A DNA stretch of 62,784 bases, the filler included, from Circinaria calcarea (Eukaryota): NCBI GenBank assembly GCA_051942165.1. It is 7 parts of 7 records of this genome, joined end to end, with 100 filler letters (N's around TTAATTAATTAA, not from the genome) between each part and the next. Parts side by side here need not be neighbours in the genome. Positions count along the whole stretch, not along the records: positions 26,970 to 35,854 come from JAVECS010001033.1; 6 more parts are not named here. One strand, written 5' to 3'. The translations under genes and the position numbers were made by a program. Every line of letters begins with the position of its first letter. The first letter of the stretch is position 1. The notes below the pieces were generated by a model. The model did no database searches. It saw only the letters and a list, made by a program, of their open reading frames with translations, and had not been told where the DNA came from. Positions 24,270 through 34,938 of this stretch are shown piece by piece.

Positions 24270-25031
24270 CTAGTCATGAACATACCTCCGGTACGGCGTG
24301 ACTGAGATTGCTGACTTGACGTTTCCCAGACTATGACACACCGTATCCTGATTAAAGTATCGGGGTTTCACGTCGAACCCGGCGTTTGCAAGGGCATCAG
24401 CCTCTTTGTTCTGCGACCTCGGAACGTGCCAGAATAATACCTCCACACCATGTTGGTTGAGCTCAGTCACCGTCTGGTTGACGTCTTGGAACAAATCGGC
24501 ATTGGTAACGGGAACCCCCTTGGACGTCTTGTAACCGTTCGTCTCCCACTTGAAAATCCACTCCGTCATGCCCTTGACTACGTACTCGGAATCCGCTTTG
24601 ATGACTATCTGGCTCAAGTGCTCCATCTCGTAGACTTTGACGGCTATTGCAGTCTCAAGAGCCCTCAAACAGGCTTTGAGCTCGGCTTTCTGATTTGACG
24701 GTATGGGATCATACACCGGATTGCTGCTGTTCCATGAAGAGTCCTTGGCAAAATACACTCCAATAGCCGACAGAGCTTTGGTAGTACCATTACCCCTACA
24801 AGCACCATCAACGGCAATAATTAGACTGTCTTTATGTCTTTCCAGTCGACCGCAGTGCTCGCAAGGGTCCGCCATGTCGCAGGGAACGAACGTCCACTCG
24901 CCTCGCAGGTCTTCATAGTCTGTCGAGTCCAGCTCAAAGCCTACGCCATAAAGCTCAGCGGGACGAAATTTCCTGTCAGCCACCCTTGGGCGAGTCGCGT
25001 CGCAATCAGAGGTATGATATCTGATGCCCAT
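24270..25031 (-). CDS. Stand-alone RNase H1-like protein with N-terminal Cys cluster
   Basis: VDGACRGNG, SNQKAELKA, KADSEYVVKGMTEWIFKW, WHVPRSQNKEADALA give a complete DEDD set; CxxxxPCxxC precedes the domain; first ATG at 25031. Confidence 0.85.
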   Translation of the reverse strand: MGIRYHTSDCDATRPRVADRKFRPAELYGVGFELDSTDYEDLRGEWTFVPCDMADPCEHCGRLERHKDSLIIAVDGACRGNGTTKALSAIGVYFAKDSSWNSSNPVYDPIPSNQKAELKACLRALETAIAVKVYEMEHLSQIVIKADSEYVVKGMTEWIFKWETNGYKTSKGVPVTNADLFQDVNQTVTELNQHGVEVLFWHVPRSQNKEADALANAGFDVKPRYFNQDTVCHSLGNVKSAISVTPYRRYVHD

Positions 25032-29015: not shown

Positions 29016-30639
29016 CTAGGCCGGGATCATCTTGACCTTAACACCATTTTTACTCTCTACTGTCATCCTGAAAAGCTCCGTCCAAGGCTCGGGGTCCTGA
29101 TTCTCGATGCTGGAGAACTCCTGTATTAGCCTGACGATGATATATGCTGCCTCGGTAAAAACCATCTGCTGTGCGGGGCAAATCCTCGGTCCGCCAGAAA
29201 ATGGCAAATACTCCCATGTGGGACGCGCCGTCTCCCATCTTTCGGGGCAAAAGTCGTCGGCATTCTCGCCCCATAGTCCTCTATCCCTATGCATTGCGTG
29301 GACGTTCATCACTACACCGGTGCCCTTTTTGATAAAGATAGGCGCTTTGCCGTCTGGACCGCCGCCAAGTGGGAGAATCGTGTCTTTGTGACAGATTCGA
29401 CGAAGTCGGCCGGCGAGGGGGTGGAGGCGGAGACCTACGAGATCAATCAGCGTTTTCAGAGAGTGGCTTGGGTGGCTAGCTTACTCTCGTTGAATATATA
29501 GCGCAAATACTTTATAGACTTGAGAAGCTCGAAGCTCAAAGGCTCCGAAGATGTCGCTGTCAAAACCTCGAGCCGAAGCTTGTTCCAACGATCCGGATCG
29601 CGTACGAGATGAAAGAGAGTATCACTAACTACAATTCCTATCACATCATATACGGGAAAGAAGGCATAGAGAAGCTAGTAGCGTAAGTCAATAGGGTCTT
29701 ACGTTTCCTTAGCCATCTCATTTAGGAGTATATATCGTTCTCCTTGAAGTTTCTCGTTATTCTCTGAAGACTGCCCTTTAAGGACCGTTTCAACATGCTT
29801 ATCAATAAACACGTGGACCTTCCTTATTGCTTCTTTCCATTCTCTGTCCCTCCCCCGTATGAATGTGAACTTGCCAAGTCGCATCCGAGCTGCAAGCCCG
29901 CGCATACATATATTGAAAGACTCAAGGAACTGCGTAGAATCGAAAGGGGTGTTTGGCGAAAGAGATTCTACTGATTCTCCGAAAAGGAATTCCGTAGAAG
30001 TATCGAGAAACTGTCCCGGGTACAGACTATTTCAGTAAAGAGTTATCAAACAGCTGTCTTAAGAAGCCATACCAGACGTTTGATCAAAGGCTGCAAATCA
30101 ATTGTTGAACCATCACGGGGAATCAAATTAAGCAATTGATTAACGTGCGTTTCAAGTGACGCAAGATTTGATATCTGGGGCCTTGCAAACGTTGGCCTGA
30201 TTAAAGCTCGTGAACGTGCCCAAATAGCCCCATCTGCTGTGAAAATGCCTTGAGCCATAAAGGAACCACCTCTGGCCGCTGGTTTAACAGCTTCTACTCC
30301 GTAACTATCAAAGGCAAGGGATAAGACAGTTTGGACGTTCCTTGGCTCACATGTGTTAATAACCGTTTTGCCCCAAGAATTGATCTGGAACGTTCTCCCG
30401 TATATATCGAAAAGTCTTCTGGTCCTATCCAACATTTGGCCATGCTTCATGGCCTTACCCATAGCAAAGAACAAGTCGAGTCCAAGGATGGGCTCCTTGT
30501 GGGGGTATTTTCTAGGCTCCATGCAGCCCTTCTGACGTTTGAAGTTGGTAAAGGCAGAGCGGTGACGGACCACCTGAACAACATAAGCAGCAAGCAAGAT
30601 GCTTATCGCCCAAGTGACAGTGGTGAACAGCAGTCCCAT
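29016..30639 (-). pseudogene. Cytochrome P450 (CYP52-clan-like, 503 codons) with two in-frame stops; exons 30639-30073, 30010-29485, 29434-29016
   Basis: GIFTADGAIWARSRALIRPTF, FLDTSTEFLFGES, ESLR (ExxR), LPLGGGPDG, PERW, FSGGPRICPAQQ heme motif; TAA at 29699-29701 and TAG at 29675-29677 in frame. Confidence 0.85.
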
Positions 30640-31635
30640 GATGAATACGAATTGCTGAGAAGGCGTGCGTCCGATTGACCCCTCGGAAATTGCTATGCTC
30701 TAAATGCAAAAGTTCTAGCATGAATAGAATACAAAGACAGCCATGTGAGTCCGGGAAATAGGATTAGGAGCAACAAGAAAAAAGTAGGAAAGCTCAACAA
30801 CATTCACACTATTCTCTGTGTCGGGAGCTAACGCAACTGGAGGTTGTCACGATTAGGAAGAAAGCGGAGTCAAAGAAGTGGAAATGAGGGAAGCATCTTA
30901 GTAGCGTCGGTGAAGTGACCCGCATGCATTGCATTACAAGCGTGGTGGTACAGGTGCCAATAGGGTGTGGTCTTTGTCCTTATCATATTAAATAAGGACA
31001 GATTGCCCGGTCGCTGCCCTACATCCTTTAGGGACCGTATTCTATAATCCTTGAGCACCAGCGCAGATCCCGTCGGAGTATTTGAAATCCGCTTCGTTCC
31101 ACTTCGTATCACCGTGGCCGGTGTGGCAGAGTCGTTCCCGGTGAGACATGATTGATGAATATGGTGGACCTATAGTTTTGCCAAACATCATCCTGCAAGA
31201 GAGGTCCTCTTTAGCTGTGCCGTTACCTGCGGCAGCCTCTAACGTTATTCACCTTCTCTACCTGCAGTGCTAAAGCCCATGACTGCAGCCCGAATCACGC
31301 CGCTATATCACTTCTGATGCCCGTGATGTTCAGATACCTAGCTCATGTTTCGATGATGGAGGGAAGCAGAGTAGATCTAATCTTTTCTACTTTGCCGTAT
31401 TTACTCGTCCTGGCTAGCGACCTTGGAAAAATGCGTGACGTTTACTCTACGTGAGCAAGCATTGTGTTCTGTCAGATCCACCGCCCGAGTACCTTTTTCG
31501 CTCAGTCCAAGAGTTACCATTACTGCCACTGAAATCGTCGCCTTTTATTAGATGCTCCGTCTCCTCTCTCAAGCACTCAGTCGAAGCTTTACAGTCTTTC
31601 CACTTGTGACACTCTCTCGTCGACTAAATGCTGCC

Positions 31636-32538
31636 ATGAGAGCCTCTCATGAATCTTATCTGCCTTTACAACAAAGTGCGTTTTCAGATGTGGACCAGAA
31701 TCCAGTTCCCTTCTCCTCACGGCGCAACTATGTCATCCCGCTCCTCCTTCTCTCGAATATTATACTCGGGATCGTATCGGCTGTGGCGCTCTTCCTTCCC
31801 TCTCGCACGGGAGCGGTAGAGCAAGCTCCCTTGGGATTTGGTGAGTTCTCGTGCTCATACATATTGAAGAAAGCTCTAAAACTAAGACTTCCGACAGCCA
31901 GGACAGACGATCTACCAACGACCTACAAATCCTTTTCTTGGTGGACTAAGTACAGCGGCAAGAACGACACCGAAGTCGATGCCCTGTGGGATGCGATCCT
32001 ACCCTCACATGGCCTCGTTGCTGTCGACCGCCAATGGGCTACGGAGCATTCTTGGCCGGATTCTATGCATCTTCCTGACAATGACGGCAAATCAATCTAT
32101 CTTCTTGAAGCGTACCACCAACTTCACTGTATAGTCGGTCTCTTTACTCCTCTTGCTTTGACCCCTGCTAATATCTGCAGAAAATTATTCGACAGACATT
32201 CTGGGAAGCCGTGAGGAGGAAACCATATACGTATAATCCACCGCACGCGGGTCATTGCTTCGACTTTTTGCGTCAGGTGAGGGAAGCACATACCACGGAA
32301 TAACAACCCTATGCAGCTGACTCGCTATCAGTCAATTCAATGCAATGCAGACAACACTCCTCTTTACAGTTTCGGCGACTATACCGCTGGAGATGGGCAG
32401 CTTCGTAAGTGCAAGGACTGGAACGCACTTCGCGATTGGGCCACCACGAACACGGCTTGTTACAGAGACAGCGTCGACCCGATCCCTATCAAAGATCATT
32501 TCGGCTACTGTGATGGTGGTAAGGATGGTTTGATTTAG
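31636..32538 (+). CDS. UstYa-like / DUF3328 oxidase (247 aa); exons 31636-31840, 31898-32133, 32181-32276, 32332-32538
   Basis: N-terminal single TM helix, DALWD, YHQLHCI and HAGHCFDFLRQ (two HxxHC motifs), IQCNADNTP, GDGQLRKCKDWNAL; three canonical introns give an intact frame. Confidence 0.93.
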
Positions 32539-33714
32539 GCGAAAAGGATTGGGACCAATCGTGGGTCGTGCTAGGAAGTATGTACAGTATAGTAGAGCTA
32601 GGCTGGAGTTCTTACGCCAGAGACCTTTACTTATATGCTGGTTGGTATCTATAGCTTATAGTTGAGAATCTTAGCAAAATCCAGGATATCGCCTTGACTC
32701 AACATTGCTAATCTTACCTTGCTTTCGTATATGTTCAAACGGCTACTGTTCCTCTATGGCGTTAAAGCAACCGTAACACGGAATGAGCAATTGCCCAAAC
32801 AATACCCTGCATCTAGGGCTCCCGTATGCTTAGGTCGTAAAGATAAAAGCGGCAAGACTAGGGCCTCGATGGACATCACTAGCTGCTTTATCCGGAAAAG
32901 AGTACGAATAGGTGCCTTGACAGCACCGGGTAATCTGTGCCGTGCCTACGCACCACCCGTTTAAGGCCCCCCTTTCAAGTAATCTATAAGGAGTCTGCCT
33001 GAGACCCAATTAAGGGGTTAGGCCTACTAGTGCGGTAGCCTACAGATCTTGCTGCATTAGCGTCGGGGACGAGTCAGAAAGGCTATACGGAGTAAGCTGA
33101 TAAGCATCTCGGCGATGATCTACCATAACGCCGGGCTAAAATGCGAGCCGCGCGGTTAAAGAAGTTTAAATGACGCGATATAAACGAGGGAGGAGTGGAG
33201 ACAAAAAAGGAGATCTTCCATCGCACACTCGGTGACTCGTATCAGCTAAAGCGGCTTGCACCGTAACGCCAGGCAAATGTTGAAAGAACGGTGTGGAGCT
33301 CACAACCGTTCCCTCGGTACTTCGTACACCACGTGCTGTGCCTCGCCCAGGTGTGAGCTTTGGTGGTCTATCAAGAAGGTGTCATCTACTTCCCTCAGGA
33401 GATGCTGAAAGCTAGCCCGATGAGCGGGGCGAAATGAGGGGCGTCGGCTTACAAGATGACCTGCTTTAGTGGCGAAGCGGGACGATTTTCCCGATCTAAC
33501 ATAAGGATAACGGCCGGCAGGTCCGAATGGGGTGGATTCCTTCTCTACCTCCTCCTACCCCGGCTAGCGGATATACTTTGATGGGCTGATCTCAGGTTGC
33601 CGTATCCTGTAGCAGCGCCACATAGCACACTGTTGCACTACTTCTCAATGGCGTTGGCGGTGCCTGTGCACATTATGGTGCCAGGAGTTGTAGTACGATA
33701 TCCCTGGTCATTCG

Positions 33715-33810
33715 CAGGGCCGCCAGTAGTCCAGCAGTCCACCCTTTAGACTGCCAAGGCAGTCACAGTCCAGCCTCTGGACTGGACTGTTTGGACTACT
33801 GGCGGCGCTG
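33715..33810. mobile_element. 96-bp hAT-type MITE
   Basis: TIRs CAGGGCCGCCAGTAGTCCA / CAGCGCCGCCAGTAGTCCA (18 of 19 match), flanked by the 8-bp direct repeat GTCATTCG (33707-33714) / GTCATCCG (33811-33818). Confidence 0.8.
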
Positions 33811-34016
33811 GTCATCCGTATCAGCTGCCAATCGAACAGTCGTGATGTAACTCTGGCAGCGGCGAAGCGCCGGTTCCAGGATAAAGAAAGGTGAGATCCC
33901 TACTCCAATCCGACTTTTCTCCGTATACCCGAATTCCGTTTATCCCAATATCCAAACCGCCTGAACACTGTCTCTTGCACGCCGTCTTACAACATCAAAA
34001 GGACTTTTTATCCAAA

Positions 34017-34220
34017 ATGCGGTTCAGTATTTTGACTGCCTTTGTCCTTAGCTTTACCGCTGTTGGTATTGCTGCCCCGGTGCCAGGTGGGCTGTATGGT
34101 CCGTTCATATGCAAACCTCAGCCGGATCCTTTTCAACTAATTATAAATTTAGCCACAATGGGTGAGAACCCTGCAGCGGGTGTGGAAGGCGCTGAGACTG
34201 ACGTTGGGGACTTCTATTGA
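34017..34220 (+). CDS. 45-aa secreted peptide, candidate RiPP precursor; exons 34017-34086, 34153-34220
   Basis: Good start context (CAAAATG), signal peptide MRFSILTAFVLSFTAVGIA-APVP, 66-nt GTGGGC...CTAAT...TAG intron; spliced product MRFSILTAFVLSFTAVGIAAPVPATMGENPAAGVEGAETDVGDFY. Confidence 0.75.
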   Translation: MRFSILTAFVLSFTAVGIAAPVPGGLYGPFICKPQPDPFQLIINLATMGENPAAGVEGAETDVGDFY

Positions 34221-34938
34221 CTTCTAAAGGTATATACGTTTGCGATAGGTATTCATCACGTCAGCTATGATACTGACATGTTATGTAGAAAGTGGATTTG
34301 TTAGATGTGTTTGTGGTATGATTGTTTTAGAAGAGATAGCAGATGCTGTAGGATGCGAGAGAGGTTTTGCGTATTCATTACAACAGGAATACAGCCGTTT
34401 TATGTCAGATGATTTCTGTTTAAATCTTATATATGATGTTAATTGGTCTTGTAAGACTCCTTTAAGGCTTCCCATGGCCTTCTACTCGTATTCCTTGTCT
34501 CTCCCACAGAAGTGAGACTGCAAAGGGATATATATATGTTTACCTGAGAGACGTGCCTAAATTATCAAATATTAAGTGACATGGTACTCTGAGCGGATGG
34601 ATTGGGAAACTGGAGCGTGTCTCCGCGTTTCGGTTGTGTGAGGCTTCAGACGAGCATTTGAGGGGCGTTGGATAGTGAGGACCAGCTTAGGGAACCAGTG
34701 GATGATTAATTTATCTGGAGTACTACCCCCGGGATGTCTTGTTCCCGGGATTGTAAAATGGAACTTTTGGCGGTAGCTAAATATTTGGTTATGTTTGAGC
34801 CCCATTCGCCAGCTTGAGCATTCCGTCTCAATTCCATGGGACACATCTGGGACGTTGGTAGGATCCCATTCTTTACTTGGGGAAATGTTCAAAACCAGGG
34901 GTAGGTTTTCTTTTGATGTGGGATGCTCCTATTCTCCT

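Follow-up and report, generated by a model that had tools for sequence, protein, structure and literature searches.

We analyzed a stretch of DNA from Circinaria calcarea (GCA_051942165.1; 62,784 nt including filler, here termed the window), which consists of seven parts from ~8.9-kb contigs with N-linkers between them. One 8.9-kb contig (positions 26970-35854, JAVECS010001033.1) carries a cytochrome P450 (P450) gene, a UstYa/DUF3328 oxidase gene, and a gene for a small peptide. The best reading of this locus, which we regard as probable, is a reduced DUF3328-plus-precursor pair that makes, or once made, a Tyr-linked macrocycle. Under this reading, the chance that the pair is still working is slightly better than even; that it is a relic, or needs genes elsewhere in the genome, falls a little short of an even chance. 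All gene structures are splice models predicted from the DNA sequence alone, and signal peptides were called by our own hydropathy rule rather than by SignalP.

The DUF3328 gene and the candidate precursor gene

The two genes of the proposed pair comprise the following features.

31636-32538, + strand: intact UstYa/DUF3328 oxidase gene, 247 aa; exons 31636-31840, 31898-32133, 32181-32276, and 32332-32538; open spliced frame, PF11807
32116-32130, + strand: first HxxHC motif, HQLHC, residues 142-146
32244-32258, + strand: second HxxHC motif, HAGHC, residues 169-173
34017-34220, + strand: candidate precursor gene with a single core, encoding 45 aa in two exons (34017-34086 and 34153-34220); its product has a signal-like N-terminus, then an acidic spacer and the terminal core, a layout also seen in related loci
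34087-34152, + strand: phase-1 intron of the precursor gene, 66 nt, in frame and without a stop
34203-34220, + strand: terminal core motif VGDFY with the stop codon directly after it

The original prediction described an intact DUF3328 gene followed by a 45-aa signal-peptide gene, and both were recovered. Removal of three GT-AG introns of 57, 47, and 55 nt joins the four exons of the DUF3328 gene into an open frame of 247 codons with both HxxHC motifs, and Pfam PF11807 (UstYa) matches two pieces of it with 34.5 and 26.6 bits (cut-off, 25). The protein has a single N-terminal hydrophobic helix (residues 36-54), and both HxxHC motifs follow it. By analogy with CctR (PMC12435403), the first of these motifs would serve in copper ligation; copper- and O2-dependent activity as a dimer was demonstrated for CctR, AprY, and ApnU (PMC12435403). 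A PDB sequence search with the related protein P0009 as the query gave no hits.

The peptide gene is located 1479 nt (~1.5 kb) downstream of the DUF3328 gene, and its two-exon model has a signal-like start. As the intron is in frame and free of stops, its retention would leave the C-terminus unchanged. The peptide contains one core and no dibasic site, and not the repeated cores between Kex2 sites that characterize KEP precursors.

Several features were observed around the peptide gene. Starting 10 nt past the peptide stop codon, 59 nt (34230-34288) resemble a GT-AG intron and include a branch site; this stretch is a possible intron of the 3′ untranslated region. Approximately 205 nt upstream of the peptide start lies a branched foldback (33715-33810; DNA fold of -40.5 kcal/mol, z of -9.5), which is possibly a small foldback element; it had no Rfam match near the threshold, and the motif of one arm was not found in the 28 related loci described below. 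An Rfam search of 32539-34016 likewise gave no score close to the gathering threshold. The index for repeat-induced point mutation (RIP) is positive over 32370-33269, between the DUF3328 and peptide genes, and this region is perhaps a mutated repeat remnant. The intergenic regions contained no repeats and no DNA shared with the 28 loci or the rest of the window. An RNase H open reading frame without introns (24270-25031) lies on the contig before this one and has no relation to the pair.

Small precursor genes beside DUF3328 genes in related loci

A protein search yielded 43 DUF3328 homologues among 138 candidates, and an alignment of 15 DUF3328 homologues was used as the query to retrieve 28 metagenome loci (L001 to L028), which are not independent and fall into 13 groups at 85% identity. 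In 19 of the 28 loci, a small gene ending in [ILVM]-G-[ADS]-x-Y-stop was found within 2.1 kb of the DUF3328 match, and 18 of these genes are single-core. The arrangement of the window, with the small gene downstream and both genes on one strand, recurs in 15 loci; in 4 loci the small gene lies upstream on the opposite strand. We defined the encoded proteins, from these relatives, as the xGxxY precursor family. The models comprise 44 to 54 aa (76 aa in L016); their N-terminus is signal-like, and they contain a phase-1 intron, whose acceptor is unclear in L003 and L023. The phase-1 intron after the signal/pro region is common to the window gene and the relatives' models; such introns are frequent in small secreted genes and are a weak feature. 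The tails found in the relatives are AIGAGY, AMGAGY, KIGSGY, RLGAAY, and QIGDGY, plus VGDEY twice in L016, and the terminal Tyr is invariant across all aligned cores.

In the other loci the situation was as follows. L012 has no full small gene and holds the signal part only, at the contig end. L007 has a precursor gene with a stop inside the core and beside it a DUF3328 gene also bearing stops, and L009, which was not read in detail, shows the same layout. L026 has a variant tail, and its start codon was not found. No small gene was seen in L019 and L025, whose contigs are ~1.2 kb long, or in L027 and L028, which have 2 bases upstream and none downstream. In L006 no precursor was found within 16.7 kb.

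Among 24622 six-frame termini in the loci, the strict motif [ILVM]G[ADS]xY-stop occurred 19 times, in every case in a family precursor; among 3843 termini in the window it occurred once, at the 45-aa peptide. A loose form of the motif was present in 50 of 1200 Markov-shuffled 2-kb segments. The motif was derived from the data, and it holds among the relatives even without the window peptide.

A profile search (37 candidates, 6 hits) identified a three-core protein of Whalleya microplaca (P0045) and a two-core protein of Xylaria longipes (P0046) in addition to single-core forms. P0045 and P0046 have KR between the cores and VGDEY or VGDAY tails, and the multi-core homologues, including L016 with two cores, carry KR/RR sites. 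One family spans one to three cores, the last of which always ends at the stop, and the KR/RR sites of the two- and three-core forms link it to Kex2-type dikaritin precursors. Longer multi-repeat precursors of 134 to 2000 aa were not found among 8000 candidates, which is weak evidence, the range of 96 to 133 aa lying outside the search. A search of the ESM Atlas with P0045 gave a best score of 0.85 and is a lead only.

These results link the precursor family to this DUF3328 subfamily in the relatives with high confidence. The predicted link between DUF3328 and a non-repetitive precursor was thus upheld by the 19 loci with a small secreted gene, the same terminal motif, and a distance of at most 2.1 kb. 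The proposed check for co-occurrence of DUF3328 homologues with a short peptide and a P450 was positive for the peptide (19/28) and negative for the P450 (0/28).

The precursor gene is upstream and inverted in L003, L004, L005, and L023 and downstream in close relatives (L007, L020-L024); this difference in orientation between close relatives indicates that the DUF3328 gene was flipped within the cluster. Several clusters have a decayed look, with stops in the DUF3328 rows of L007, L009, L011, L023, L024, and L026, some of which may read into introns. The stops suggest frequent loss of the pathway.

Fit of the window pair to the family

The window peptide is probably a divergent member of the xGxxY precursor family. 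It carries the terminal motif [ILVM]-G-[ADS]-x-Y, which in the family precedes a stop or a dibasic site, and it ranked first among 3112 termini when scored on the final six columns of a profile from which it had been left out. A number of results weigh against this assignment and against the pair as a whole. On all 16 profile columns, the window peptide ranked 11th of 3112 with a negative score. A hidden Markov model (HMM) of 16 relatives' leader-plus-core segments gave it 0.3 bits compared to 5.7 to 25.1 bits for held-out relatives, and scores as high were reached by 444 of 2000 full shuffles and by 3 of 59 other secreted-like window models. This low score indicates that the peptide lacks the conserved leader or carries it displaced by about three residues. 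The family leader is acidic, and its V[DN]-hydrophobic motif stands nine positions ahead of the Tyr; in the window peptide an acidic spacer is present and the motif is out of register. The leader mismatch is the main weakness of the proposed pair, and the presumed homology of the window peptide would rest on five residues plus the gene layout. Use of an alternative donor at 34094 leads to a 29-aa product without the core; the donor at 34087 was judged the stronger of the two from the exon-end and +5 bases. A phmmer search of 1.84 billion proteins with the unspliced 67-aa peptide frame gave no hits. Many of the 28 loci are near-duplicates, with six distinct tail types. The window enzyme fell into no well-supported group in a tree of 29 rows, which comprised the window, 14 proteins, and 14 of the 28 loci. 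One of its weak neighbors, L006, is the one long locus in which no precursor was found; the others were P0009, P0033, and P0021. Moreover, we know of no product of any family member. The last exon nearest to that of the window DUF3328 gene is from L019 (83% identity over 72 aa), whose contig is too short to show a precursor.

The missing HMM-level similarity and the failure of phmmer to find a homologue are what would be expected of chance neighbors, in which case the 45-aa frame would be spurious or encode some unrelated small secreted protein, and the DUF3328 gene would be an orphan or belong to another pathway; DUF3328 enzymes also occur in polyketide and nonribosomal peptide synthetase pathways (PMC12048977). 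However, the single strict motif among the window termini is located in a secreted-type gene at the distance and in the orientation found in 15 relatives, and we consider a chance association improbable.

Accessory genes and comparison with lichen Clan R1

When sequences from the loci served as tblastn queries, 22 of the 28 loci gave a match to an O-methyltransferase, 19 to a second UstY, 17 to a tyrosinase, and 14 to a fungal rhodopsin-domain gene. None of the four was found on the window contig or elsewhere in the window, and the lack of a tyrosinase, an O-methyltransferase, and a second UstY on the contig is a further point against the proposed pair. The notion of a minimal cluster accordingly applies to the window locus only and does not extend to most relatives, which have these three genes. 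The gene for the rhodopsin-domain membrane protein, recurrent in its 14 loci (e.g., L016:11292-12164 and L017:14722-15613), could encode a receptor or regulator for the peptide. In L006 (1768-4098, 8682-10146), the genes beside DUF3328 include one that is kexin-like, with Peptidase_S8 and P-domain, and one for an O-methyltransferase.

The related loci match the gene set of Clan R1 from Parmeliaceae lichens, i.e., two UstY, tyrosinase, and O-methyltransferase (PMC12048977). Clan R1 contains the same DUF3328 subfamily: the homologue P0027 is IMSHALPRED_001472, to which the window enzyme is 57% identical across 220 aa, and the Clan R1 O-methyltransferase is listed under the adjoining tag IMSHALPRED_001473 (PMC12048977). 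Of the 28 loci, 15 contained one or more of five exact motifs taken from the Clan R1 O-methyltransferase sequences of that article. The window differs in having one UstY and no accessory genes, and because the latter are not in the window, we do not file its locus as Clan R1. The authors of the Clan R1 study found no repeated precursor and suggested that it is encoded elsewhere or single-core (PMC12048977). Their list of signal-peptide proteins gives identifiers only, and one of these proteins could be this precursor gene. The xGxxY family probably includes the missing Clan R1 precursor, the candidates for which come from the related loci and not from Imshaugia DNA.

The absence of the accessory genes from the window locus and the lost leader match also fit a decayed or split Clan-R1-like cluster, in which the tyrosinase, O-methyltransferase, and second UstY would have been lost or reside elsewhere, the leader would have drifted, and no product would be formed from the locus alone. 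The RIP-like signal in the P450 gene (see below) and between the DUF3328 and peptide genes points in the same direction, as does the decay of several relatives, with DUF3328 stops in six loci (some rows may read into introns). On the other hand, the DUF3328 gene has kept an open frame, both motifs, and four clean exons, and the peptide retains its signal-like start, intron, and terminal motif. We regard such a decayed cluster as rather unlikely; it overlaps with the relic branch of the DUF3328-plus-precursor pair, which we continue to prefer.

The P450 gene is probably a bystander

The P450 gene shows the following features.

29016-30639, - strand: pseudogene of a cytochrome P450, in divergent orientation to the DUF3328 gene; exons 30639-30073, 30010-29485, and 29434-29016
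29587-29767, - strand: CpA-poor, TpA-rich patch of the P450 gene (codons 271-330, I-helix region) containing both stops (29701-29699 and 29677-29675)

The placement of the three genes on one contig between HMG-CoA lyase and diphthamide genes, as originally predicted, was confirmed by the contig bounds and the Pfam families HMGL-like on one side and Diphthamide_syn on the other. The suspected inactivation of the P450 was verified as well, since its model of 3 exons and 503 codons has in-frame stops at codons 293 and 301. Its class assignment is based on Pfam p450, which matches the first and last exons, plus an Ascomycota P450 look-alike. Each stop is one C-to-T step from a Gln codon, and the patch contains 19 TA and 3 CA, compared to 58 and 94 in the rest of the coding sequence (Fisher p 2e-5, for a patch picked post hoc). 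The stops and the TpA-rich patch would fit RIP. Introns excising both stops were considered and rejected, as a 28-nt GT-AG intron is too short and out of frame and a 78-nt in-frame one deletes the I-helix region (assessed by eye).

The window P450, HMG-CoA lyase, and diphthamide genes had no tblastn match in any of the 28 loci, and the p450 family was not found among 156 open reading frames (ORFs) from 12 of them. The P450 gene is probably a dead neighbor, and the earlier claim that it belongs to the cluster is very unlikely to be correct. In a three-gene cluster, the P450 would have taken over Tyr hydroxylation from the tyrosinase, or served to tailor the product, before a recent inactivation. 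Such a role would agree with the divergent arrangement of the P450 and DUF3328 genes around a shared upstream region of 996 nt, with the lack of a tyrosinase at the locus, with the limitation of the damage to ~60 codons, and with the presence of a P450 in the ustiloxin cluster (PMC12048977). It is contradicted by the absence of a homologue from all 28 loci, although this evidence is indirect, as none of them is a close orthologue with long flanks, and by the lack of p450 matches among the 156 ORFs of the 12 loci. Furthermore, P450 active sites are cytosolic, whereas the precursor would be lumenal. We consider a three-gene cluster very unlikely and retain the two-gene pair.

Proposed mechanism and comparison with other dikaritin systems

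We propose that the DUF3328 enzyme and the 45-aa peptide are an enzyme-substrate pair and a reduced, divergent member of the dikaritin-type peptides that are made by ribosomes and modified after translation (RiPPs), within a family of one to three cores ending in aliphatic-Gly-x-x-Tyr. As in dikaritin loci, the DUF3328 gene is close to a precursor gene with a signal peptide for the endoplasmic reticulum (ER), here called by the hydropathy rule only. Observed here are the gene structures, the motif at the C-terminus, the multi-core forms, and the linkage among the relatives. We infer entry into the ER, the copper chemistry, trimming, and the ether between Val(-4) and Tyr from CctR, AprY, the ustiloxin pathway, and the conserved core positions. 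The precursor would enter the ER and lose its signal peptide. The membrane-anchored DUF3328 protein, acting with copper and O2 as CctR and AprY do, would activate a β C-H bond, most likely that of Val -4, and this residue would be linked through an aryl-alkyl ether to the phenol of the C-terminal Tyr, so that a pentapeptide macrocycle would result. The acidic spacer may be trimmed by general proteases, and as the stop codon ends the core, no Kex2 cut would be required after it. In the full relatives, the tyrosinase would probably hydroxylate the Tyr first, the two UstY proteins would close the ring, and the O-methyltransferase would cap the free catechol hydroxyl. A Phe-Tyr cross-link was abandoned: position -1 is variable (G, A, E, F), whereas positions -4, -3, and 0 are conserved and would favor an aliphatic residue four before the terminal Tyr as its partner.

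Having one UstY, the window locus would work like the asperipin-2a cluster of Aspergillus flavus (aprA, aprY, aprR, aprT), and we file it, by analogy, as a variant of this type. That cluster, compared by description only, resembles the window in having one UstY, no tyrosinase, and a Tyr-ending core; it differs in its core FYYTGY, a bicyclic product, and the presence of a reductase and a transporter. Its precursor AprA is a multi-repeat protein. AprY alone is essential for the Tyr-to-β-carbon ethers in asperipin-2a (PMC6514808). The ustiloxin cluster (ustA, ustQ, ustYa, ustYb, ustM) shares with the relatives a tyrosinase, two UstY, a methyltransferase, and acidic residues preceding each core. 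In contrast, the 16 YAIG repeats of UstA place Tyr at the start of the core, whereas here Tyr is last, and the methyltransferase of the relatives is of the O-methyltransferase type, unlike that of the ustiloxin cluster. The victorin cluster of Cochliobolus victoriae encodes tyrosinase and DUF3328 enzymes, and in its product a C-terminal aromatic residue is likewise joined to an aliphatic β-carbon; differences are the multi-repeat precursor, the chlorination, and the Phe-derived ring. Epichloecyclin (gig) clusters also contain one DUF3328 gene and a secreted precursor with a conserved Tyr, but differ in the core, in the presence of a follower peptide, and in genes for a SET methyltransferase and a dedicated kexin (PMC10540207).

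Single-repeat gigA-like genes were reported in Aciculosporium take and Periglandula ipomoeae (PMC10540207), so single-core precursors as a category are already published and not new. The KEP survey required at least three repeats (PMC7329392) and therefore could not find single-core precursors, in agreement with the prediction that repeat-based mining would miss them. RYC56191 is not in the table of that survey, although X. longipes was included; xGxxY core words gave no matches in the supplements, a result that is uninformative as the table gives accessions and not sequences. No description of the xGxxY family was found in the literature covered, which excluded most subscription journals and bioRxiv supplements.

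Implications

We tentatively put forward a wider picture, which we hold to be possible though somewhat doubtful. It would comprise an unmined, widespread dikaritin branch with stop-terminated single-core precursors of ~45-55 aa, interconvertible with two- and three-core Kex2 forms and including the missing Clan R1 precursors. The window would represent its two-gene minimum, with one copper oxidase, a remodelled leader, and no tyrosinase, closing VGDFY into a Val-Tyr ether macrocycle. If this is true, many orphan DUF3328 genes have unannotated two-exon precursors alongside. Repeat-based surveys are blind to genes of this kind, and the results offer a simple way to mine for them, as two-exon signal-peptide genes ending in aliphatic-G-x-x-Y-stop near DUF3328. 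Since the product would be predictable from the precursor sequence, the question of the Clan R1 precursor becomes a direct test by liquid chromatography-mass spectrometry, with AIGAGY, QIGDGY, and AVGDEY as named cores. The occurrence of one-, two-, and three-core forms in one family illustrates how multi-core precursors can contract or expand. Should the window pair work on its own, it would serve as a compact peptide-cyclizing tool.

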